Virus record (IMG/VR): IMGVR_UViG_2671180676_000002
Origin: a virus
Taxonomy: Duplodnaviria > Heunggongvirae > Uroviricota > Caudoviricetes
Direction: 5' to 3' (one strand)
Length of the DNA stretch: 19,922 bases
The position numbers and the translations under genes are program-made. The notes under the pieces were generated by a model. It was not told the origin of the DNA. It did no database searches and saw nothing but the letters and a program-made list of their open reading frames with translations. Below are positions 1-19,922 of this stretch, in pieces; within the stretch, counting starts at the first letter, position 1; the number at the start of each line of letters is the position of its first letter.

Positions 1-202
1 CTTCTTTCATTCGCTGAAGGTGGAATGTATCCACGGGGAACGCTTTAGCAGCCGGGAAATAATGCGGGCAACGGTGTTTAATTATATCGAGTGTGATTAC
101 AATCGCTGGCGTCGTCACAGTGCCTGTGGCGGTCTCAGCCCGGAACAATTTGAAAACCATAATCTCGCTTAGGGCCGTGTCCACATTACGTGGGTAGGAT
201 CA
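1..202 (+). mobile_element. Right end of an IS3-family insertion sequence (element continues upstream of the window)
   Basis: Transposase C-terminus in frame 2..172, followed by a terminal inverted repeat at 173..202 (GGCCGTGTCCACATTACGTGGGTAGGATCA) ending in TCA, resembling IS3-group ends from memory. Exact IS name not determined. Confidence 0.75.
2..172 (+). CDS. IS3-family transposase OrfB, C-terminal fragment (5' end outside window)
   Basis: Translation [56 protein letters not shown] then TAG at 170-172; near-identical in pattern to the C-terminus of IS3 InsF as I recall it. Confidence 0.8.
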
Positions 203-249
203 TTATGCGGGTTTGAGCGGCATAAATTACCACTGAAAGCCCTTAAACG

Positions 250-1263
250 TTACTCTACTGTGGACACTGTGTGGACACTCTCGGCCTCAGTACCACCTCT
301 TAGCGGATTAAGAGAAATGGCGTCCTGAAGGTACTCTGGCGCAAAATGAGCGTAAACCATAGTTTGCTCAATCCGCGTGTGACCTAGTATCCGTTGTAGC
401 GTGATAATACTTCCTCCATTAATCATGAAATGAGTGGCAAAGCTGTGCCTTAGTGCATGTGTGGCTTGCCCCGTTGGCAAATCCGGTTTTATTGCTTTCA
501 TTGTTCGTCTGAAGCGAGGGTAATCAGCATCAGGGAATAAAAAACCTCGTTTGTTATCCGCGATCATTTTGGCAACAGCCTCTGAGATCGGGACGGTGCG
601 TGGTTTGTTTGTTTTCGTTTTAACAAACGTGACGCGGTTATGGATGATATTTTCTGCTTTCAAACGAGCTGCTTCTCCCCAACGTGCTCCTGTACTCAGG
701 CAAAGAATCGCAATCTTTTTATTGTCGCCGTCAAGTGCTGCAAGCAGTAAGGCAATTTCTTCCTGTGTGAGATAGCCTGTTTCTGGTTTTTCCTCCTTAA
801 GCCTCTTTGTCCCTCTGATAGGGTGCTCACCAAAGAATAACTCCGCTTCAATCAGGGCTGTAAACATGCCGCTAATACATGTTAAATCACGATTGATACT
901 CGAAGGTTTAATACCCTGACTTCTTCGGGTGGCGCAGTACTGGCTGATAAGGGATTTCGTGATTTGAAATGCGCATGGGTCATTCGTTATTTTTGTGAAG
1001 ATTTCAATTTTTCCAAGATTAGATTTCCCATGCTCTTCGTGTTTACCCTTTAAATCCCACCAGATCTGTGTCAGTTCCGACAGACGTCGTTTGTCTGTTG
1101 GTTTTGATAGCCATTCTTTATTGTGGTGGTTGTACAACGTGTATTTTTCGAAAGCGACAGCTTCGCTTTTCTTATCAAACTTCCTACGGATGCGTTTTCC
1201 GTTACGTCCAGTAGGGCGGATGTCCACTTCATATCGACCATCATCGAGTTTTTTGATTGCCAT
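250..1263 (-). CDS. int: Phage integrase, tyrosine recombinase (P2 Int type), 337 aa
   Basis: Full ORF in track; C-terminal catalytic region with HALRHSFATHF...LGHTRIEQTMVYAHF (R-H-R-Y family signature); RBS GGAGGG 7 nt upstream of ATG at 1263; length and position next to C match P2 int. Confidence 0.95.
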   Translation of the reverse strand: MAIKKLDDGRYEVDIRPTGRNGKRIRRKFDKKSEAVAFEKYTLYNHHNKEWLSKPTDKRRLSELTQIWWDLKGKHEEHGKSNLGKIEIFTKITNDPCAFQITKSLISQYCATRRSQGIKPSSINRDLTCISGMFTALIEAELFFGEHPIRGTKRLKEEKPETGYLTQEEIALLLAALDGDNKKIAILCLSTGARWGEAARLKAENIIHNRVTFVKTKTNKPRTVPISEAVAKMIADNKRGFLFPDADYPRFRRTMKAIKPDLPTGQATHALRHSFATHFMINGGSIITLQRILGHTRIEQTMVYAHFAPEYLQDAISLNPLRGGTEAESVHTVSTVE

Positions 1264-1378
1264 CAGAAAACCCTCCGAGTGGTACTTTTTTTTGCTACTA
1301 CTAATCGCTTTTTTCGTGGTGGCTGAAATTTAGCCACCAATAGTAGGCACTTGTGATGAATATATTCACGATGAATTG

Positions 1379-1678
1379 TTAACCAGTCTTTTGACCGGAG
1401 TGGGGCGACGTTGTTTCGTTTTGCCCAAAGTGTGCGAGAGCGGGCGCAATTTGCCCGGACTCAGGAGCGATCTGATTGGTCATGAACCATAAAGTGTATT
1501 TGGTGAATTGTGGGGTCTGCAGGATGTTCATCATGACATCTGTTGGAGGTGTTGAACGACCACTTTCATAGTAACTCAGCGTGCCATACGGAACCCCTGT
1601 TAAATCAGCAAGTTGTTGTCTGCTCAAATACTCAGATTTTCGCATTAAGACTATCTTCTCGCTTATCGTGTTTGACAT
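1379..1678 (-). CDS. C: Immunity repressor C, 99 aa (helix-turn-helix)
   Basis: 99-aa ORF divergent from cox, HTH-like segment LSRQQLADLTGVPYGTLSYYESG; start codon overlaps the -35 of the early promoter; matches P2 C in size and position. Confidence 0.9.
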   Translation of the reverse strand: MSNTISEKIVLMRKSEYLSRQQLADLTGVPYGTLSYYESGRSTPPTDVMMNILQTPQFTKYTLWFMTNQIAPESGQIAPALAHFGQNETTSPHSGQKTG

Positions 1679-1755
1679 GGTGTTTAGATCTCAATAGTAT
1701 TTAGTTTAGATGTAGATTGTTTAGTGCTTGGATGTGGGCACTAAAAGGCATTATA
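1672..1755. promoter_or_regulatory. Immunity switch: early promoter Pe (rightward), C operator direct repeats, and convergent Pc -10
   Basis: -35 TTGACA at 1672-1677, 17-bp spacer, -10 TAGTAT at 1695-1700. Ten-bp direct repeats TGTTTAGATC (1681-1690) and AGTTTAGATG (1703-1712), 22 bp apart, flank the -10 as described for P2 C operators. Reverse-strand TATAAT at 1750-1755 is a candidate Pc -10. Confidence 0.6.
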
Positions 1756-1792
1756 AGGCATTAAACGCAATTCATGAGGGCTGGAGGACGAC

Positions 1793-2068
1793 ATGAGCAA
1801 GCAAGTAACACTCATGACTGATGCGATTCCTTATCAGGAGTTCGCAAAACTAATAGGAAAATCGACAGGAGCGGTTCGTCGGATGATCGATAAAGGAAAG
1901 CTGCCTGTAATTGATATGACCGATCCACAATCAGCTTCAGGTCGTGCAGGTGAATATTGGGTATACCTTCCGGCATGGAATAACGGACTAAAACTGGCTT
2001 ATGAAAGCCGCCCTAAAGAGATTCGTGACGGCTGGTTGATGTGGTTAGGTCTCGGTGAACCACGTTAA
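1793..2068 (+). CDS. cox: Cox: excisionase and transcriptional regulator, 91 aa
   Basis: First gene rightward of the switch, RBS GGAGGA at 1783-1788, 91 aa as in P2 Cox. Confidence 0.9.
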   Translation: MSKQVTLMTDAIPYQEFAKLIGKSTGAVRRMIDKGKLPVIDMTDPQSASGRAGEYWVYLPAWNNGLKLAYESRPKEIRDGWLMWLGLGEPR

Positions 2069-2078
2069 GGAGAACCGT

Positions 2079-2249
2079 ATGAATGAGCCTCGTTGTATTG
2101 CTCAGTTACTGCGTAACGAAAGCCCCAGGGCGATTGACTTCACCATTACCCACGGTAAGGGGCGTAAGGGAATCATTATCCGCACCAAAAAACAGAGTCC
2201 GTTAAAGAAGGCTCTGACCTTTCTGAAAAGTCGGAGGGTCTGGAAATGA
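2079..2249 (+). CDS. Small hypothetical early protein (orf78 position of P2)
   Basis: ATG at 2079 preceded by AGGAG with 6-nt spacer; stop overlaps B start (ATGA). The ORF-track version from 2055 uses a GTG with no RBS. Confidence 0.5.
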   Translation: MNEPRCIAQLLRNESPRAIDFTITHGKGRKGIIIRTKKQSPLKKALTFLKSRRVWK

Positions 2250-2746
2250 CAGTGATGACGCTCAATCTTGTTGAAAAACAGCCAGCAGCTATGCGCCGGA
2301 TAATTGGTAAGCATCTGGCCGTCCCTCGCTGGCAGGAGACATGCGATTATTATAATCAGATGATGGAACGTGAACGGCTAACGGTTTGCTTCCATGCGCA
2401 GTTAAAACAGCGTCACACAACGATGCGTTTTGAAGAAATGAACGACGTCGAACGTGAACGACTGGTATGTGCAATTGATGAATTGCGTGGGGCATTCTCA
2501 AAACGCCGTCAGGTTGGCGCAAGTGAGTATGCATATATTAGTTTTTTAACAGTCAGTCAGCGTCGCACTTTATTTATGCACGCACGACTGACAGAAAAAG
2601 AATTTAACCAGCCATACTGGCGAATTAATGAGGAATCATGTTACTGGCGTGATGCTTTATTCCGTGCATTACGTGAATTATTCAGTCTGTTTGAGTATGC
2701 ACCGACAATTCTGACGTCGGTAAAACCAGAGCAATATCTGCATTAA
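2246..2746 (+). CDS. B: Replication protein B (helicase-loader-like), 166 aa
   Basis: 166-aa ORF, RBS GGAGG, position and length as P2 B. Confidence 0.85.
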   Translation: MTVMTLNLVEKQPAAMRRIIGKHLAVPRWQETCDYYNQMMERERLTVCFHAQLKQRHTTMRFEEMNDVERERLVCAIDELRGAFSKRRQVGASEYAYISFLTVSQRRTLFMHARLTEKEFNQPYWRINEESCYWRDALFRALRELFSLFEYAPTILTSVKPEQYLH

Positions 2747-2809
2747 GTAATTAACCAGAGTTTTTAACGCGCTTAATCGTGCGGGGCTTCTTTTTGCCCG
2801 GAGAAAGTC

Positions 2810-3034
2810 ATGCATACAGTTTCTGAAAATCAGTGCGGTAAATACGCATTACTGCTGCAACAGGCCAGAACCGAAGCACAGGCCGACGCTGCGACGCGCT
2901 TTTCTTCTCATCTTGACGCCATGATTCGCCACATCACAAAGGCGGAGTTATCCCGCGTGGAGATAGTCGAGCTGCTCAGTCAGGAGTCGGAAAAATTTCA
3001 CAATATCGGATTGTCTCGCGGGGAGGTGCTTTGA
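2810..3034 (+). CDS. Hypothetical early protein (orf80 position)
   Basis: ORF with GGAGA RBS; overlaps next gene by 4 nt. Confidence 0.7.
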
Positions 3035-3336
3035 TGTCCTGTTCTCGTTCAGTTGTATTACTGAATAACGCCTTAAAAATCGCCGTTATGGAAAATGGCG
3101 ATTTGTCTCTTATTCAACTTGGTCTTGATAAAGAAAAGCGCGACATAACTGAATCTGTTATCGCGATTTATCAGAATGAATTAAACCTCCTGTCTGATGT
3201 GGTCAATTTACTTGTTAAACGCGCTGTATTTCACAAGCAAATCTCCTCCGTGGATGAACTGACGAAATTAACGACAGAAATTGCCAGCTATTGCGCTGAT
3301 GAATTTAAAAAACTTAACGACAAAAGGAGCTGGTAA
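3031..3336 (+). CDS. Hypothetical early protein (orf81 position)
   Basis: ORF translationally coupled to neighbours. Confidence 0.7.
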
Positions 3337-3560
3337 TGCCGGACAACGTAGATTTTATTCAGGAACAACAGGCTGAATTACTGGAGCGTCAGATTAACGC
3401 GGCAAGGGTAAAACATTGCGGTGCTTCTGCGCTGGTTTGCGAAGAGTGTGACGCGCCAATACCTGCTGCCCGTCGTGCGGCTTATCCGTCAGCCACGCGT
3501 TGTGTTTCCTGTCAGTCAGTCTTTGAAGCAAAAAACAAACATTACCGGAGAACGGCATGA
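3336..3560 (+). CDS. TraR/DksA-family C4 zinc-finger protein (orf82 position)
   Basis: CEEC..x17..CVSC four-cysteine motif in a 74-aa protein; RBS AAAGGAG upstream. Confidence 0.8.
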   Translation: MPDNVDFIQEQQAELLERQINAARVKHCGASALVCEECDAPIPAARRAAYPSATRCVSCQSVFEAKNKHYRRTA

Positions 3561-3832
3561 GTATTCGTATCGAAATTGGCGAACGTTATGTTGTTACCAG
3601 TGACAGCTTTCAGTTTATTCTCCACGAGAAAAAGAGAGCGGAAAGCGGTAAAAACGCCGGTCAGGAATGGCTGGCGGTGGTTGGTTATTACCCGAAATTA
3701 AGCCAGCTCGTTTCCGGCCTGATGCATCACGATATTCTGACCGGAAGCGCAAAATCTTTTGCCGATTTAAACGCGCAGGTTGAGCAACTCAGCAGGCGTT
3801 GTTCAGAGGCTTTTGGCTCATATGGACGTTAA
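3557..3832 (+). CDS. Hypothetical early protein (orf83 position)
   Basis: 91-aa ORF overlapping the upstream gene by 4 nt and running into the start of A. Confidence 0.7.
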   Translation: MSIRIEIGERYVVTSDSFQFILHEKKRAESGKNAGQEWLAVVGYYPKLSQLVSGLMHHDILTGSAKSFADLNAQVEQLSRRCSEAFGSYGR

Positions 3833-6101
3833 AGCCTCCGGGCGTTTTGTCCCTCCGTCAGCATTTGCCGCAGGCACCGGTAAGGCGTTTACCGGTGCTT
3901 ATGCATGGAACGCGCCACGCGAGGCTGTCGGGCGCGAAAGACCTCTTACACGTGACGAGATGCGTCAGGTGCAAGGTGTTTTATCCACGATTAATCGCCT
4001 GCCTTATTTTTTGCGCTCGCTGTTTACTTCACGCTATGACTACATCCGGCGCAATAAAAGCCCGGTGCACGGGTTTTATTTCCTCACATCCACTTTTCAG
4101 CGTCGTTTATGGCCGCGCATTGAGCGCGTGAATCAGCGCCATGAAATGAACACCGACGCGTCGTTGCTGTTTCTGGCAGAGCGCGACCAGTATGCGCGCC
4201 TGCCGGGGATGAATGACAAGGAGCTGAAAAAGTTTGCCGCCCGTATCTCATCACAGCTTTTCATGATGTATGAGGAACTCTGCGATGCCTGGGTGGATGC
4301 GCATGGCGAGAAAGAATCGCTGTTTACGGATGAGGCGCAGGCTCACCTCTATGGTCATGTTGCTGGCGCTGCACGTGCTTTCAATATTTCCCCGCTTTAC
4401 TGGAAAAAATACCGTAAAGGACAGATGACCACGAGGCAGGCATATTCTGCAATTGCCCGTCTGTTTAACGATGAGTGGTGGACTCATCAGCTTAAAGGCC
4501 AGCGTATGCGCTGGCATGAGGCGTTACTGATTGCTGTCGGGGAGGTAAATAAAGACCGTTCACCTTATGCCAGTAAACATGCCATTCGTGATGTGCGTGC
4601 GCGCCGCCAGGCAAATCTGGAATTTCTTAAATCGTGTGACCTTGAAAACAGGGAAACCGGCGAACGCATCGACCTTATCAGTAAGGTGATGGGCAGTATT
4701 TCTAATCCTGAAATTCGCCGGATGGAGCTGATGAACACCATTGCCGGTATTGAGCGTTACGCCGCCGCAGAGGGTGATGTGGGGATGTTTATCACGCTGA
4801 CCGCGCCGTCAAAGTATCACCCGACTCGTCAGGTCAGAAAAGGCGAAAGTAAAACCGTTCAGCTTAATCACGGCTGGAACGATGAGGCATTTAATCCAAA
4901 GGATGCGCAGCGTTATCTCTGCCGCATCTGGAGCCTGATGCGCACGGCATTCAAGGATAATGATTTACAGGTCTACGGTTTGCGTGTCGTCGAGCCACAC
5001 CACGACGGAACGCCGCACTGGCATATGATGCTTTTTTGTAATCCACGCCAGCGTAACCAGATTATCGAAATCATGCGTCGCTATGCGCTCAAAGAGGATG
5101 GTGACGAAAGAGGAGCCGCGCGAAACCGTTTTCAGGCAAAACACCTTAACCGGGGCGGTGCTGCGGGATATATCGCAAAATACATCTCAAAAAATATCGA
5201 CGGCTATGCACTGGATGGTCAGCTCGATAACGATACCGGCAGGCCGCTGAAAGACACTGCAGCGGCTGTTACCGCATGGGCGTCAACGTGGCGCATCCCG
5301 CAATTTAAAACGGTTGGTCTGCCGACAATGGGGGCTTACCGTGAACTACGCAAATTGCCTCGCGGCGTCAGCATTGCTGATGAGTTTGACGAGCGCGTCG
5401 AGGCTGCACGCGCCGCTGCAGACAGTGGTGATTTTGCGTTGTATATCAGCGCGCAGGGCGGGGCAAATGTCCCGCGCGATTGTCAGACTGTCAGGGTCGC
5501 CCGTAGCCCGTCGGATGACGTTAACGAGTACGAGGAAGAAGTCGAGAGAGTGGTCGGCATTTACGCGCCGCATCTCGGCGCGCGTCATATTCATATCACC
5601 AGAACGACGGACTGGCGCATTGTGCCGAAAGTGCCGGTCGTTGAGCCTTTGACTTTAAAAAGCGGCATCGCCGCGCCTCGGAGTCCTGTCAATAACTGTG
5701 GAAAGCTCACCGGCGGTAATACTTCGTTACCGGCTCCCACGCCTTCTGAACACGCCGCAGCCGTGCTTAATCTGGCTGATGACGGTGTTATCGAATGGAA
5801 TGACCCGGATGTCGTGAGGGCGCTCAGGGGCGCATTAAAACACGGGCTGAGAACGCCAAATCGTCAACAAAGAAACGGAAGCCCGTTAAAACCGCATGAA
5901 ATTGCACCATCGGCCAGACTGAGCCGGTCTGAACGATTGCAAATCACCCGTATCCGCGTTGACCTTGCTCAGAACGGTATCAGGCCGCAGCGATGGGAGC
6001 TTGAGGCGCTGGCGCGTGGCGCGACCGTAAATTATGACGGGAAAAAATTCACGTATCCGGTCGCTGATGAGTGGCCGGGATTCTGGCATCAATTTGAGTA
6101 A
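3822..6101 (+). CDS. A: Replication initiation protein A (rolling-circle HUH endonuclease)
   Basis: Long ORF ending TAA at 6099-6101; HUH motif PHWHMMLF (H-W-H at 5016-5024) and paired tyrosines YIAKYISK (Y codons at 5169-5171 and 5181-5183). Start is ambiguous: the ORF track opens at TTG 3780, I prefer ATG 3822. Confidence 0.9.
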   Translation: MDVKASGRFVPPSAFAAGTGKAFTGAYAWNAPREAVGRERPLTRDEMRQVQGVLSTINRLPYFLRSLFTSRYDYIRRNKSPVHGFYFLTSTFQRRLWPRIERVNQRHEMNTDASLLFLAERDQYARLPGMNDKELKKFAARISSQLFMMYEELCDAWVDAHGEKESLFTDEAQAHLYGHVAGAARAFNISPLYWKKYRKGQMTTRQAYSAIARLFNDEWWTHQLKGQRMRWHEALLIAVGEVNKDRSPYASKHAIRDVRARRQANLEFLKSCDLENRETGERIDLISKVMGSISNPEIRRMELMNTIAGIERYAAAEGDVGMFITLTAPSKYHPTRQVRKGESKTVQLNHGWNDEAFNPKDAQRYLCRIWSLMRTAFKDNDLQVYGLRVVEPHHDGTPHWHMMLFCNPRQRNQIIEIMRRYALKEDGDERGAARNRFQAKHLNRGGAAGYIAKYISKNIDGYALDGQLDNDTGRPLKDTAAAVTAWASTWRIPQFKTVGLPTMGAYRELRKLPRGVSIADEFDERVEAARAAADSGDFALYISAQGGANVPRDCQTVRVARSPSDDVNEYEEEVERVVGIYAPHLGARHIHITRTTDWRIVPKVPVVEPLTLKSGIAAPRSPVNNCGKLTGGNTSLPAPTPSEHAAAVLNLADDGVIEWNDPDVVRALRGALKHGLRTPNRQQRNGSPLKPHEIAPSARLSRSERLQITRIRVDLAQNGIRPQRWELEALARGATVNYDGKKFTYPVADEWPGFWHQFE

Positions 6102-6191
6102 TGATCTCATCTATACAGTATTAAGCAGTTTTGACTGTAATTGATTGTTTTTTATATGGTTGCATGCATTAAATCTACGTCAATATCATTA

Positions 6192-6200
6192 TGTTATAAT
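6192..6200 (+). promoter_or_regulatory. Candidate extended -10 promoter for the plus-strand accessory genes
   Basis: TGtTATAAT (TG at 6192-6193, consensus TATAAT at 6195-6200) in an AT-rich leader, about 30 nt upstream of the ATG at 6229. Confidence 0.4.
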
Positions 6201-6228
6201 GCATTACTTAAAAATGTTGGAGACAAAA

Positions 6229-6420
6229 ATGTTAAAGCCTGCAGATGTTGTTTGTTTGAAAAGCGGTGGATTTAAAATGACTGTATCTGACTCTACTGAG
6301 ACTCATGCTAAATGTATTTGGCATGATAAAGAAGGAGTTTTGCACGAGGAGTCATTCTCCATTGATTTACTGGAAATAGCAGAGAGTAAAAGTGGTATGC
6401 TGTGTCGTCCACGTAAGTGA
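6229..6420 (+). CDS. Small DUF2158/YodC-like protein (about 63 aa)
   Basis: ATG at 6229 with GGAGA RBS (6219-6223); VVCLKSGGFKMTV...CIWHDKEG..HEESF..LLEI resembles the YodC/DUF2158 small-protein pattern from memory. The 91-aa track version starts at a TTG without RBS. Confidence 0.6.
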   Translation: MLKPADVVCLKSGGFKMTVSDSTETHAKCIWHDKEGVLHEESFSIDLLEIAESKSGMLCRPRK

Positions 6421-6447
6421 ATCACAATAAAATTCACGGGGGAAAGT

Positions 6448-7128
6448 ATGAAACAATACAGCGAATTAGAAAACAATGTTAAGAGATTCATTGTTGAGCA
6501 TGAAAAAGGGATTTCTATTGATGATATTCATCATAAGTTCCGGATGAAGGATGGTCAGAATCGCAAGATGGCAGATTATCTTATTGATAATAAAAAGATA
6601 ATTTTGGAGATGAAAAGTCTTTTTTCTGACAGGGTCAAGAATGTCAATGATAAATTGAATGAGTTGGTTAAAACTGATAGTTGGCTTGCAAAAAACTGGC
6701 ATGGTGCTATTCATTTAGAAGAGTTGATAAAAAGACACCCAGACTCAAAGCGATTTAGAAATGATATAATGAACTTTGCTTATGAAAATATTAAAACAAA
6801 GGTAGTTAAAGAAGCTAATAAGCAAATAAATGCAACAAAGGATGTTTTGGGTTTAAATGACTCGATTGGCGGATTGATTTTGTTAAATGATAATGTCTTT
6901 TCACATGAGTTTAATTATTTGTCAGATGAAATATTATATTTGCTAGGCACAAAGAGATATTCGAGTGTTGAGTTTGTGGTTTATATTGCAAAATTGATTG
7001 ATAAACAGGTTGATGTTTGTGTGCTACTTGACAGTCAATCTAAAAATAAAAATTATATTGAATGGTATATGAATAATGTTTTTTTGTTGAACTGGGCGTC
7101 TTTTAATAAATATGCAATAAAGATGTAG
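6448..7128 (+). CDS. Hypothetical protein, 226 aa, AT-rich accessory gene (candidate phage-exclusion/defence protein)
   Basis: Clean ORF with purine-rich RBS (GGGGGAAAG) 27 nt after the upstream stop; Lys/Asn/Ile-rich composition; possible D43..E54-x-K56 nuclease-like motif (ADYLIDNKKIILEMK). Function not established. Confidence 0.75.
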   Translation: MKQYSELENNVKRFIVEHEKGISIDDIHHKFRMKDGQNRKMADYLIDNKKIILEMKSLFSDRVKNVNDKLNELVKTDSWLAKNWHGAIHLEELIKRHPDSKRFRNDIMNFAYENIKTKVVKEANKQINATKDVLGLNDSIGGLILLNDNVFSHEFNYLSDEILYLLGTKRYSSVEFVVYIAKLIDKQVDVCVLLDSQSKNKNYIEWYMNNVFLLNWASFNKYAIKM

Positions 7129-7379
7129 TGGTGTGGATGGATATGAAATGAGTCAACCAAGATGCACCTTGGTCAGTAATCTCATGTGAGATACCACATA
7201 TAACACCAAAAGTGTCAGGTTGATGGCCATTGTTCACCGTTTACAGCAGATTATGGTCAACGAAAATCTGACGCCCGATGAGCTAGTCGGGTGTGCCGAA
7301 ATAGTCAGGGATAATTACGAACAGCTTAACTATATCGGTCAGTCCAGCCTTGCGCCGCCACCACGCAGACGATAGAGAA

Positions 7380-7418
7380 CCCCGCCAGCAATGAAACATG
7401 TTTTCAGTGCTGGCGGGG
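7380..7418. terminator. Hairpin between convergent accessory genes (likely terminator, mainly for the minus-strand gene)
   Basis: Perfect 11-bp stem CCCCGCCAGCA / TGCTGGCGGGG with a 17-nt loop; lies 31 nt downstream of the minus-strand gene stop. Confidence 0.45.
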
Positions 7419-7448
7419 TTGAACAACGAACGAAGTGAGGCGTTAGCA

Positions 7449-8390
7449 TTAAGTTAATTTTAATGAATGGTACTCTCGTGAGTTGACCGAAGATTTGAGA
7501 TAACCGCAATCATTAACCGACAGTATTGCCGCTAATAGGCGACAAACGAGTTTCTGCATTTGCAGTAATATATCGTTACCATATTGATTGTTGTTAACAC
7601 TGGAAAAACCAAGTGGTTGGCCAAAAAAAATAGCCTCATGAAAATTATCATTGCGGATGCCAGAAATGTTTTTTTTGCCTGATACCCATGTGGGGATTGA
7701 TAACCCATAAATTCTGCACATCCACTTTAATCGCTTGGAATGATTTGGCTGGGTTTTATCAGGAGCCTTGTCATGCTCAGCCCACGATAAAGCAAAGCAA
7801 CCATCAAGTGCCATGTAAAGGTACTGGAATTTTTCAAAAGGAAGGTATTGTGGGTTTTGAGATAAGAATAGCGCATGCACCACTGCCGCAATTCTTTTGG
7901 GGGAGTGCGCATCCTTTTGTTTGTTAGTTATATAATTAAGAGCCAGTTCTATGACTTCTTTTTCAGAGCATCCAACGAGAATAAAATCGGTTAACTTAGT
8001 GGGCTTGATAGTGGTTGCATCAAGAAAACCAGCGTCAGTGGTTGTCAATCTTATACCCTTGAAAAAAGAGAGGCACCACACAACAAAGTTGAGAGTTTCT
8101 AACGAGGATGTGTTTTTTAATTTTAGTGTGTGCGTTTTGGGCATGCCGAATACTCGGTAACTATAAGGCATTGTGCATGAGTCACCATTAAGGTTATATA
8201 CCTTTCGATTCCCAGGGTATATCCAACCATTAACAACGTTTTTATCATTGTTAATACGTTCCACTTTCTCAATAAGACCGGGTAAAGTACGCAAAGAAAA
8301 TTGTTCAGTCTCAATGTTAACTTCTACTGGATAGTATCCAAACTCCGAAATAATCTCATTTGGTTGCTGTTCGTCAACTTCGCCTTGCAT
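7449..8390 (-). CDS. Hypothetical protein, 313 aa, with HEPN-type R-N-x3-H motif (candidate abortive-infection RNase)
   Basis: ORF with GGAGA RBS 5 nt upstream of ATG at 8390; AT-rich; residues R246-N-D-N-F-H251 (plus-strand 7638-7655) fit the HEPN Rx4-6H motif with N after R. Fold not verified. Confidence 0.8.
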   Translation of the reverse strand: MQGEVDEQQPNEIISEFGYYPVEVNIETEQFSLRTLPGLIEKVERINNDKNVVNGWIYPGNRKVYNLNGDSCTMPYSYRVFGMPKTHTLKLKNTSSLETLNFVVWCLSFFKGIRLTTTDAGFLDATTIKPTKLTDFILVGCSEKEVIELALNYITNKQKDAHSPKRIAAVVHALFLSQNPQYLPFEKFQYLYMALDGCFALSWAEHDKAPDKTQPNHSKRLKWMCRIYGLSIPTWVSGKKNISGIRNDNFHEAIFFGQPLGFSSVNNNQYGNDILLQMQKLVCRLLAAILSVNDCGYLKSSVNSREYHSLKLT

Positions 8391-8628
8391 AACTTTCTCC
8401 GTTCAAAAACAGGCACGATAATTCTCGTAAGCCTATCATGTTCGCAAAGTATCCATACCTGTGGATTTTGTAAATTTAAGTTGGTTTGTCATTAAATAAG
8501 CCGTTGCATGCAACAAGTGAATGTTTTTGCATGCGTCGGGGATGTCCGTTCAGGCTGCGTGCGGTCAGGACTGGTGCGGATCCATAGTATCTATGCAACT
8601 GCATTAAAACCGCCCCATGAAGCGGGCG

Positions 8629-8647
8629 GGCGAGGCGGGGAAAGCAC
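8629..8647. other. P2-type cohesive end site (cos), 19-nt GGCGAGGCGGGGAAAGCAC
   Basis: Exact match to the P2 19-nt cohesive end as I recall it, in the GC-rich spacer upstream of the Q/P packaging operon. Confidence 0.8.
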
Positions 8648-8788
8648 TGCGCGCTGGCGGTGGTGCTGATTTTATTTTTTCAGCGTCTGAGCGCGTCGTG
8701 AAGGCGTTTACTTGGCCTGCTGGGGCGTTGGTGTGTCTGCGGGATTTTTTGTGCGGTGATGAGCGTGTGAGGGCGTGATGACGGGGTG

Positions 8789-8811
8789 TAAAAAAGCCGC
8801 CCGCAGGCGGC
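8789..8811 (-). terminator. Rho-independent terminator after Q
   Basis: GCCGCC-CGCA-GGCGGC hairpin (8796-8811) immediately past the Q stop, followed on the minus strand by a run of six T (plus-strand A tract 8790-8795). Confidence 0.6.
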
Positions 8812-8816
8812 GATGT

Positions 8817-9851
8817 TCAGCCGTTGTCAGTGTCCAGTGAGTAGTTTTTAAAGCGGATGACCTCCTGACCGAGCCAGCCGTTTATTTCCCGAATCCTGTC
8901 CTGTAACGGGATAAGCTCATTGCGGACAAAGACCTTTGCCACTTTCTCAATATCACCCAGCGACCCGACGTTCTCCGGCTTGCCGCCCATCAACTGAAAG
9001 GGGATGCGGTGCGCGTCCAGCAGGTCAGCGGCGCTGGCTTTTTTGATATTAAAAAAATCGTCCTTCGTCGCCACTTCACTGAGCGGGATAATTTTAATGC
9101 CGTCGGCTTTCCCCTGTGGTGCATAGAGAAACAGATTTTTAAAGTTGTTGCGGCCTTTCGACTTCACCATGTTTTCGCGGAGCATTTCGATATCGTTGCG
9201 ATCCTGCACGGCATCAGTGACGTACATGATGTATCCGGCATGTGCGCCGTTTTCGTAATACTTGCGGCGGAACAGCGTGGCCGACTCATTCAGCCAGGCA
9301 GAGTTAAGGGCGCTGAGATATTCCGGCAGGCCGTACAGCTCCTGATTAATATCCGGCTCCAGCAGGTGAAACACGGAGCCGGGCGCGAAGGCTGTCGGCT
9401 CGTTGAAGGACGGCACCCACCAGTAAATATCCTCTTCCACACCACGGCGGGTATATTTTGCCGGTGAGGTTTCCAGTCTGATGACCTTACCGGTGGTGCT
9501 GTAACGCTTTTCCAGAAATGCATTACCAAATACCAGAAAATCCAGCACAAAGCGGCTGAAATCCTGCTGGGAAAGCCATGGATGCGGGATAAATGTCGAG
9601 GCCAGAATATTACGTTTGACGTAAATCGGTGAGCTGTGATGCACGGCAGCACGCAGGCTTTTTGCCAGACCGGTAAAGCTGACCGGCGGCTCATACCATC
9701 TGCCGTTACTGATGCATTCGACGTAATCCAGAATGTCACGGCGGTCGAGCACCGGCACCGGCTCACCAAAGGTGAATGCCTCCATTTTCGGGGCGCTGGC
9801 AGTCATTTTTTTTGCCGCAGGTTGCGGTGTTTTCCCTTTTTTCTTGCTCAT
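8817..9851 (-). CDS. Q: Portal (capsid vertex) protein Q, 344 aa
   Basis: 344-aa ORF adjacent to cos, start overlaps P stop (ATGA); size and position as P2 Q. Confidence 0.95.
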   Translation of the reverse strand: MSKKKGKTPQPAAKKMTASAPKMEAFTFGEPVPVLDRRDILDYVECISNGRWYEPPVSFTGLAKSLRAAVHHSSPIYVKRNILASTFIPHPWLSQQDFSRFVLDFLVFGNAFLEKRYSTTGKVIRLETSPAKYTRRGVEEDIYWWVPSFNEPTAFAPGSVFHLLEPDINQELYGLPEYLSALNSAWLNESATLFRRKYYENGAHAGYIMYVTDAVQDRNDIEMLRENMVKSKGRNNFKNLFLYAPQGKADGIKIIPLSEVATKDDFFNIKKASAADLLDAHRIPFQLMGGKPENVGSLGDIEKVAKVFVRNELIPLQDRIREINGWLGQEVIRFKNYSLDTDNG

Positions 9852-19047: not shown

Positions 19048-19922
19048 ATGCCGATTATCGACCTGAACCAGCTACCTGCACCGGATGTGGTCGAGGAGCT
19101 GGACTTTGAAACCATTCTTGCCGAACGCAAGGCGACACTGATTTCCCTTTACCCGGAAGACCAGCAGGAGGCGGTCGCCCGTACCCTGACGCTGGAATCC
19201 GAGCCTCTCGTCAAACTGCTGGAGGAAAATGCTTATCGTGAGCTTATCTGGCGTCAGCGTGTGAATGAGGCCGCACGGGCGGTGATGCTGGCCTGTGCCG
19301 CGGGTAACGACCTTGATGTGATTGGTGCCAATTACAACACCACGCGTCTGACTATCACCCCGGCAGATGATTCGACCATCCCGCCGACACCGGCAGTGAT
19401 GGAATCTGATACCGATTATCGTCTGCGTATTCAGCAGGCGTTTGAAGGTTTAAGCGTCGCCGGGTCGGTGGGTGCCTATCAGTATCATGGTCGCAGTGCT
19501 GACGGGCGTGTCGCGGATATCTCTGTCACCAGTCCGTCTCCGGCCTGCGTCACCATCTCTGTGCTGTCACGTGAGAATAACGGTGTCGCATCCGAAGACC
19601 TGCTGGCGGTGGTGCGTAACGCCCTGAATGGCGAGGACGTCAGACCGGTGGCCGACCGCGTGACCGTGCAGTCTGCCGCCATTGTTGAATACCAGATAAA
19701 CGCCACGCTTTACCTTTACCCTGGTCCCGAAAGTGAACCCATCCGCGCGGCCGCCGTGAAAAAACTGGAAGCATACATCACGGCACAGCACCGGCTGGGG
19801 CGCGACATCCGTCTGTCTGCCATTTATGCCGCTTTGCATGTGGAAGGCGTGCAGCGTGTCGAACTGGCTGCACCGCTGGCCGACATCGTGCTCAACAATA
19901 CGCAGGTGCGTATTACCGTGAA
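19048..19922 (+). CDS. J: Baseplate protein J, 5' portion (3' end beyond window)
   Basis: ATG at 19048 five nt after the W stop; open frame to the window end (MPIIDLNQLPAPDVVEELDFETIL...). Confidence 0.9.
   Translation, partial: MPIIDLNQLPAPDVVEELDFETILAERKATLISLYPEDQQEAVARTLTLESEPLVKLLEENAYRELIWRQRVNEAARAVMLACAAGNDLDVIGANYNTTRLTITPADDSTIPPTPAVMESDTDYRLRIQQAFEGLSVAGSVGAYQYHGRSADGRVADISVTSPSPACVTISVLSRENNGVASEDLLAVVRNALNGEDVRPVADRVTVQSAAIVEYQINATLYLYPGPESEPIRAAAVKKLEAYITAQHRLGRDIRLSAIYAALHVEGVQRVELAAPLADIVLNNTQVRITV

Follow-up and report, generated by a model that had tools for sequence, protein, structure and literature searches.

An apparently recent ISEc16 insertion in the P' arm of a P2 prophage attL and its predicted effect on excision

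A copy of ISEc16, an insertion sequence (IS) of the IS3 family with a length of about 1.24 kb, has probably inserted in recent times into a P2 prophage, in the P' arm of its attL, and the insertion probably prevents excision of this prophage. The right-hand end of the IS is joined to the integrase-side part of attL, the attachment core is missing from the sequenced DNA, the integrase gene and its arm sites are intact, and the event is recent. The other end of the IS presumably abuts the rest of attL, as expected from simple insertion, and loss of excision is what the known layout of P2 attL would lead one to expect.

Results

The sequenced stretch and its features

The stretch of DNA analysed here, called the window, corresponds over its whole length to contig LONW01000054.1 (19,922 bp) of draft assembly GCA_001576315.1; the contig sequence retrieved from the assembly is identical to it. 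Position 1 is a contig end within a repeated IS and no biological boundary. The contig is indexed under two samples, and the ISEc16/prophage junction rests on this single draft contig. The left end of the IS, the target duplication, the displaced core and the host flank lie off the contig. At the other side the window stops within gpJ; ogr would follow about 13 kb further on, with attR beyond it. The features around the junction are the following:

1..202, plus strand: ISEc16 (IS3 family), its right-hand 202 bp, cut by the contig end and 100% identical to annotated copies
2..172, plus strand: C-terminus of the ISEc16 transposase (OrfB part), 56 codons and a stop, reading towards int
173..202, plus strand: right terminal inverted repeat of ISEc16, ending in ...GGATCA (197-202)
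203..203, no strand: orphan T, neither IS nor prophage sequence; sister prophages have C
204..260, no strand: retained part of the P2 Cox-binding region of attL, 57 of 74 bp, equal to P2 24416-24472
250..1263, minus strand: P2-type tyrosine integrase, intact, 337 aa, stop codon at 250-252, with Int_N and Phage_integrase domains
258..284, no strand: P' arm Int binding site within the 3' end of int (P2 annotation 24470-24496)

Besides the IS, no damage can be seen in int, C or cox, and the gene lengths from int through gpR, as well as those of ORFs S, V and W, resemble complete P2, as far as lengths can tell. Between gene A and the portal gene Q, in a variable slot, lies a cargo module (6229-8390) with ORFs of 63 aa (DUF2158-like), 226 aa and, convergently oriented, 313 aa; the two larger ones gave no Pfam or PADLOC match.

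The final 16 nt of the contig (19907-19922), TGCGTATTACCGTGAA, do not continue gpJ. The best matches, in about 1,500 complete E. coli genomes, all end at 19906, 50 nt short of the J stop, and a 16-mer scan of genome contigs for 19907-19922 returned scattered chance matches only. These letters may represent the edge of a further insertion or rearrangement, or else a mosaic joint.

The ISEc16 end

The first 202 nucleotides are identical (202/202) to copies in many chromosomes and plasmids of E. coli that are annotated as "IS3-like element ISEc16 family transposase". In independent copies the match stops at 202 (or at 203, by chance) and unrelated flanks follow, which fixes the IS terminus at 202. 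The transposase frame is open at the left edge of the window and closes with the stop at 170-172, and a partial gene has been called there on the contig. Its product (2-172) matches Pfam rve_2 with E=1e-20 (74 bits; cut-off, 22) and rve_3 with E=3.6e-6, and is thereby recognizable as the DDE (rve) transposase of the IS3 family, represented in the window by the C-terminal 56 aa only. An exact look-up of this 56-aa partial protein returned the source contig and one unrelated 473-bp contig.

The stop is followed by ...GGCCGTGTCCACATTACGTGGGTAGGATCA, which ends at 202. The full-length ISEc16 of E. coli 536 measures 1244 bp and starts with TGATCTTACCC...; its left repeat agrees with the reverse complement of window 173-202 at 22 of 30 positions. 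The right end in the window and the left end of the 536 copy hence make up imperfect terminal inverted repeats of the form 5'-TG...CA-3', the left end of the element being TGATCTTACCCACCAATAGTGGACAC.... Full copies are annotated with "programmed frameshift", in keeping with the programmed -1 frameshift that joins the two overlapping ORFs of IS3-family elements. ISEc16 is present at several places in many E. coli genomes, the median being 3.

The copy in E. coli 536 (about 458-1702 of the retrieved locus) lies beside a truncated mchF. Its 3-bp flanks are ATC and TAT, so that no target duplication is present, and this suggests a past IS-associated rearrangement at that locus.

Position of the junction within attL

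The annotated P2 GenBank record AF063097 was taken as the reference, window position 205 being P2 24417. The att features of P2 then correspond to the window as follows:

P2 24356-24382: attP core, equivalent to window 144-170, now IS sequence
P2 24399-24472: Cox-protected region, equivalent to window 187-260
P2 24462: int stop, window 250
P2 24470-24496: P' arm Int site, window 258-284

Alignment to P2 and to IS-free sister prophages places the insertion point at P2 24415/24416. This puts it 33 bp away from the 27-bp core, towards int, and 17 bp inside the 74-bp Cox region. Judged from this alignment, ISEc16 lies inside attL and not merely beside it. The original prediction had proposed an IS3-family end at 202, 47 bp from an int stop codon at 250-252, in or beside attL; its coordinates and identities proved correct, and the location can now be narrowed to the Cox-binding region, on the phage side of the core.

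The prediction had also failed to find the P2 core in 203-249, an observation that extends to the whole window: the core, AAAAAATAAGCCCGTGTAAGGGAGATT, has no match with five or fewer mismatches on either strand of it. Its absence from 203-249 is explained by its normal place, 80-106 bp past the int stop in P2 and in the IS-free sisters, which is where the IS now sits. At the position expected for the 27-bp core, 79 bp past the int stop, there is thus IS sequence. Nor is the Cox-binding region (about 70 bp with six cox-boxes) complete, as 57 of its 74 bp are contiguous with int.

A gap of 47 bp (203-249) separates the end of ISEc16 from the int stop. A scan with the consensus TTAAA(G/C)NC(A/C), derived from PMC3936717, marks cox-box-like motifs at 208, 234, 238 and 243, and another at the equivalent of 188, which would belong to the part beyond the IS. 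The arm-type Int sites are a pair of direct repeats, TGTGGACA, at 259-266 and 270-277; the consensus for P2-type arms is tgTGGaCa (PMC3448106). The adjoining integrase gene is of P2 type, 98.8% identical to P2 int at the DNA level. Its protein is identical to one found in 19,988 blocks of the collection, too common for an exact look-up, which led only to standard yegR-attL-int loci. A scan for terminator and promoter consensus sequences around the junction and in intact attL gave nothing informative.

The base at position 203

The sister prophages are 100% identical to the window from 204 on, and none of 725 records carries the T allele at 203. IS3-family elements duplicate 3 bp of their target, occasionally 4 bp. 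The right junction reads TTA (203-205) where the sisters have CTA, one base different, and a clean duplication of 3 bp from the sister sequence is not what it displays. T203 as a standing polymorphism, by which TTA would be a clean duplication, was considered and rejected, since T is found in 0 of 725 records. Because no other difference from the sisters occurs within 8-9 kb, the base can be tied to the IS event itself. Two possibilities may be named: an imperfect duplication, with CTA at the left and TTA at the right, or one base carried along by the IS and followed by a TAT duplication. Many ISEc16 copies, that of E. coli 536 among them, are followed by T.

A more elaborate reading takes T203 as the trace of non-canonical IS3-family integration, either a circle-junction spacer base carried along from the donor site or a retained 5' flap that overwrote the first base of the duplication, and takes the insertion in the Cox region as a selected grounding event which fixed a P2 prophage with the uncharacterised cargo module 6229-8390. 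We regard this as quite unlikely.

Sister prophages and the age of the insertion

All retrieved IS-free prophages with the same int show the arrangement host flank-core-TAGGGTGTCACCAGTAGGGGCTTTCAACGGTAC(A/T)ATGCGGG...-int next to yegR. One sister from a complete genome has the 27-bp core at both ends of a 32.7-kb prophage located between yegR and yegQ. Three further sisters, with attL intact at yegR, have zero mismatches to window 204-9327 or 204-8649. Identity over such lengths (8.4-9.1 kb) means that the ISEc16 insertion is very recent relative to any other change, and the 100% identity of the IS to its other copies counts in the same direction.

In the collections searched, the interrupted state was found in no other genome. 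The 78-bp arm segment is uninterrupted in 725/725 complete-genome records that carry it, the ISEc16/prophage junction is absent from 5,426 complete E. coli genomes, and an exact 29-mer spanning it has no match in GTDB representative genomes, JGI metagenomes or IMG/VR. The sister type itself occurs in a few dozen assemblies, as judged by look-up of the 226-aa cargo protein (6448-7128), which is rare (28 blocks of the collection). One sister draft with the same cargo (GCA_001575375.1, LOOE01000063.1) is without window 4310-4622 within replication gene A; 124 unmatched bases (1633-1756) replace it.

Several other IS copies are found in the vicinity of P2 attL. In H2-H7 (L003, L004), IS3 proper sits in the host flank, 46 bp outside the core and in the same orientation, with a GTG duplication that is clean in L003. 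This IS3 is about 88% identical (by eye) to the IS of the window. That it might represent the same event followed by an adjacent deletion of 102 bp was rejected, given that it is IS3 proper, in the host flank, with a GTG duplication of its own. IS3 lies within int in H1 (L002) and IS903B under int in H29; none of these copies lies between core and int.

The host DNA by the yegR-side core (468-547 of the complete-genome sister locus L031, and the same in L005-L025) contains a stretch, GATGTGGTCAATGGAAGACGGTGACCAG, which resembles the P arm Int site of P2, GATGTGGTCAATGTGTGGACGTGACCAG. A partial copy of the core, AAGGGAGATT, lies in the same flank about 50 nt leftward. Together these look like the relic of an older P2-type att site. 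It is this P-arm-like stretch that carries the IS3 insertion of H2-H7.

Discussion

A model of grounding

The likeliest account of these data is that a copy of ISEc16 inserted at P2 24415/24416, inside the 74-bp Cox-binding region of a P2 prophage which, like its identical sisters, would reside at the classical yegR-yegQ site. What would then lie beyond the IS is the core, the host flank and a 33-bp piece of phage arm that holds one or more cox-box-like motifs. Under simple insertion the left IS end should adjoin ...GGGAGATTTAGGGTGTCACCAGTAGGGGCTTTCAACGGTA..., and the order would be ...AAAAAATAAGCCCGTGTAAGGGAGATTTAGGGTGTCACCAGTAGGGGCTTTCAACGGTA, then CTA or CTAT, then the IS, with yegR upstream. 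About 1.25 kb or more would thereby come to lie between the core and the P' arm Int sites (259-277).

In P2 Int, core and arms are bound by separate domains (PMC3448106). In P2 attP, six cox-boxes occupy the stretch from the core to the arm sites of Int. Cox, which is needed for excision, bends DNA only if the boxes number more than four, and it is believed to give the excision complex at attL its shape (PMC3936717). P2 Int bridges arm and core sites with the aid of Cox-induced bending, and with a separation of about 1.25 kb and a split cox-box array the excision complex would probably be unable to assemble at attL. The prophage would be grounded, while immunity (C), int, cox, the cargo and, as far as the window reaches, the lytic genes would stay intact. 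The original prediction, too, had suggested that excision could be prevented and the prophage with its cargo locked in place, a reasonable expectation from the layout of P2 attL. Prophage grounding through att-site mutation is an established concept (PMC6379469), and IS insertions in prophages are commonplace (PMC2669165).

Alternatives

The most serious rival, although an unlikely one, is that the IS marks a rearranged boundary, so that the DNA to its left is no longer the rest of attL. After the insertion, or else by intramolecular transposition or by recombination between two ISEc16 copies, the core and the yegR flank could have been deleted or moved, and excision would be impossible rather than merely impaired. 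The contig ends within the IS, which keeps the left side out of view, and T203 departs from a textbook duplication of the sister sequence. The presence of ISEc16 at several places per genome and the unmatched flanks of the 536 copy, which point to ISEc16-associated rearrangements, favour this reading as well, as does the opposite contig end, which also stops at a junction, with its 16 nt not continuing gpJ. However, a deletion by intramolecular transposition would leave a flush junction, with the extra T still unexplained, and a contig break inside a multi-copy IS is a normal outcome of short-read assembly. Because short-read assemblers break in repeated IS anyway, simple insertion is the likelier explanation.

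Alternatively, the insertion could be tolerated, with arm-bound Int reaching the core by looping, or with attR-side factors sufficing, and excision would proceed at a useful rate. Some defective prophages do excise despite missing directionality factors (PMC2669165). Against this stands the division of the cox-box array: three or four of its motifs remain beside int and at least one goes with the core. Cox bending demands more than four boxes, and P2 excision depends on Cox. Heterobivalent integrases such as that of lambda moreover need a defined short spacing, with proper phasing, between arm and core for bridging. As to the extra spacing that the P2 excision complex would tolerate, the argument goes by analogy with lambda, and on the points given we hold efficient excision to be very unlikely. 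An assembly artefact, by which a chimeric read or graph error joined 202 bp of IS to the prophage arm, might be suspected from a junction only about 200 bp from the contig end, from the unmatched base at 203 and from its absence in every other collection searched, but it is extremely unlikely: IS and prophage meet precisely at the canonical IS terminus ...GGATCA, as they do in true insertions but rarely in random chimeras, the same contig is indexed for two samples, and an intact attL gives an assembler no reason to break, sister drafts running on into yegR.

Meaning of the insertion

If grounding by simple ISEc16 insertion is correct, the strain would carry a P2 prophage that is predicted to be unable to leave the chromosome. 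Immunity would persist, the cargo of the A-Q slot would still be expressed, and P4 could probably go on using the prophage as its helper. With the prophage identical to free-looking sisters, the case would present a clean and datable example of the first step in prophage domestication. Nothing here is new in principle, as it is textbook knowledge that prophages become cryptic through IS insertions and att-site lesions. A practical caution for genome scans is that the feature lies at a contig end, and claims on what is found at its other side need the rest of the assembly.

Comparison with known systems

With P2 attL (BOP', between yegR and yegQ) the window shares int, the two P' arm repeats and the distance of 46 bp from the int stop to the junction position; the gene order int-C-cox-B-A...Q-P-O-N is likewise that of P2. 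It differs in that an IS end stands in place of the 27-bp core and of the 33 arm bp next to it, and in that the Cox-binding region is cut after 17 of 74 bp. The likeness to ISEc16, as known from E. coli 536 and many other genomes, comprises 100% identity over 202 bp, the rve-type C-terminus of the transposase and the terminus ...CA, whereas the window differs in holding only the right end and in having one extra T between terminus and target. Grounded and cryptic prophages that arose through att-site or int lesions, IS insertions among them (PMC6379469), including those in O157 Sakai's pool of prophages (PMC2669165), offer the closest parallel: a cis lesion in an att site, an otherwise complete prophage and an IS as the agent. 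Most catalogued examples are old and multiply damaged; here, in contrast, we see a fresh lesion that may be, within the window, the sole one at this end, and 8.4-9.1 kb are identical to sisters that look competent for excision. ISEc16 in this attL is, in this company, an ordinary but specific and fresh instance of the well-known grounding of prophages by IS elements.
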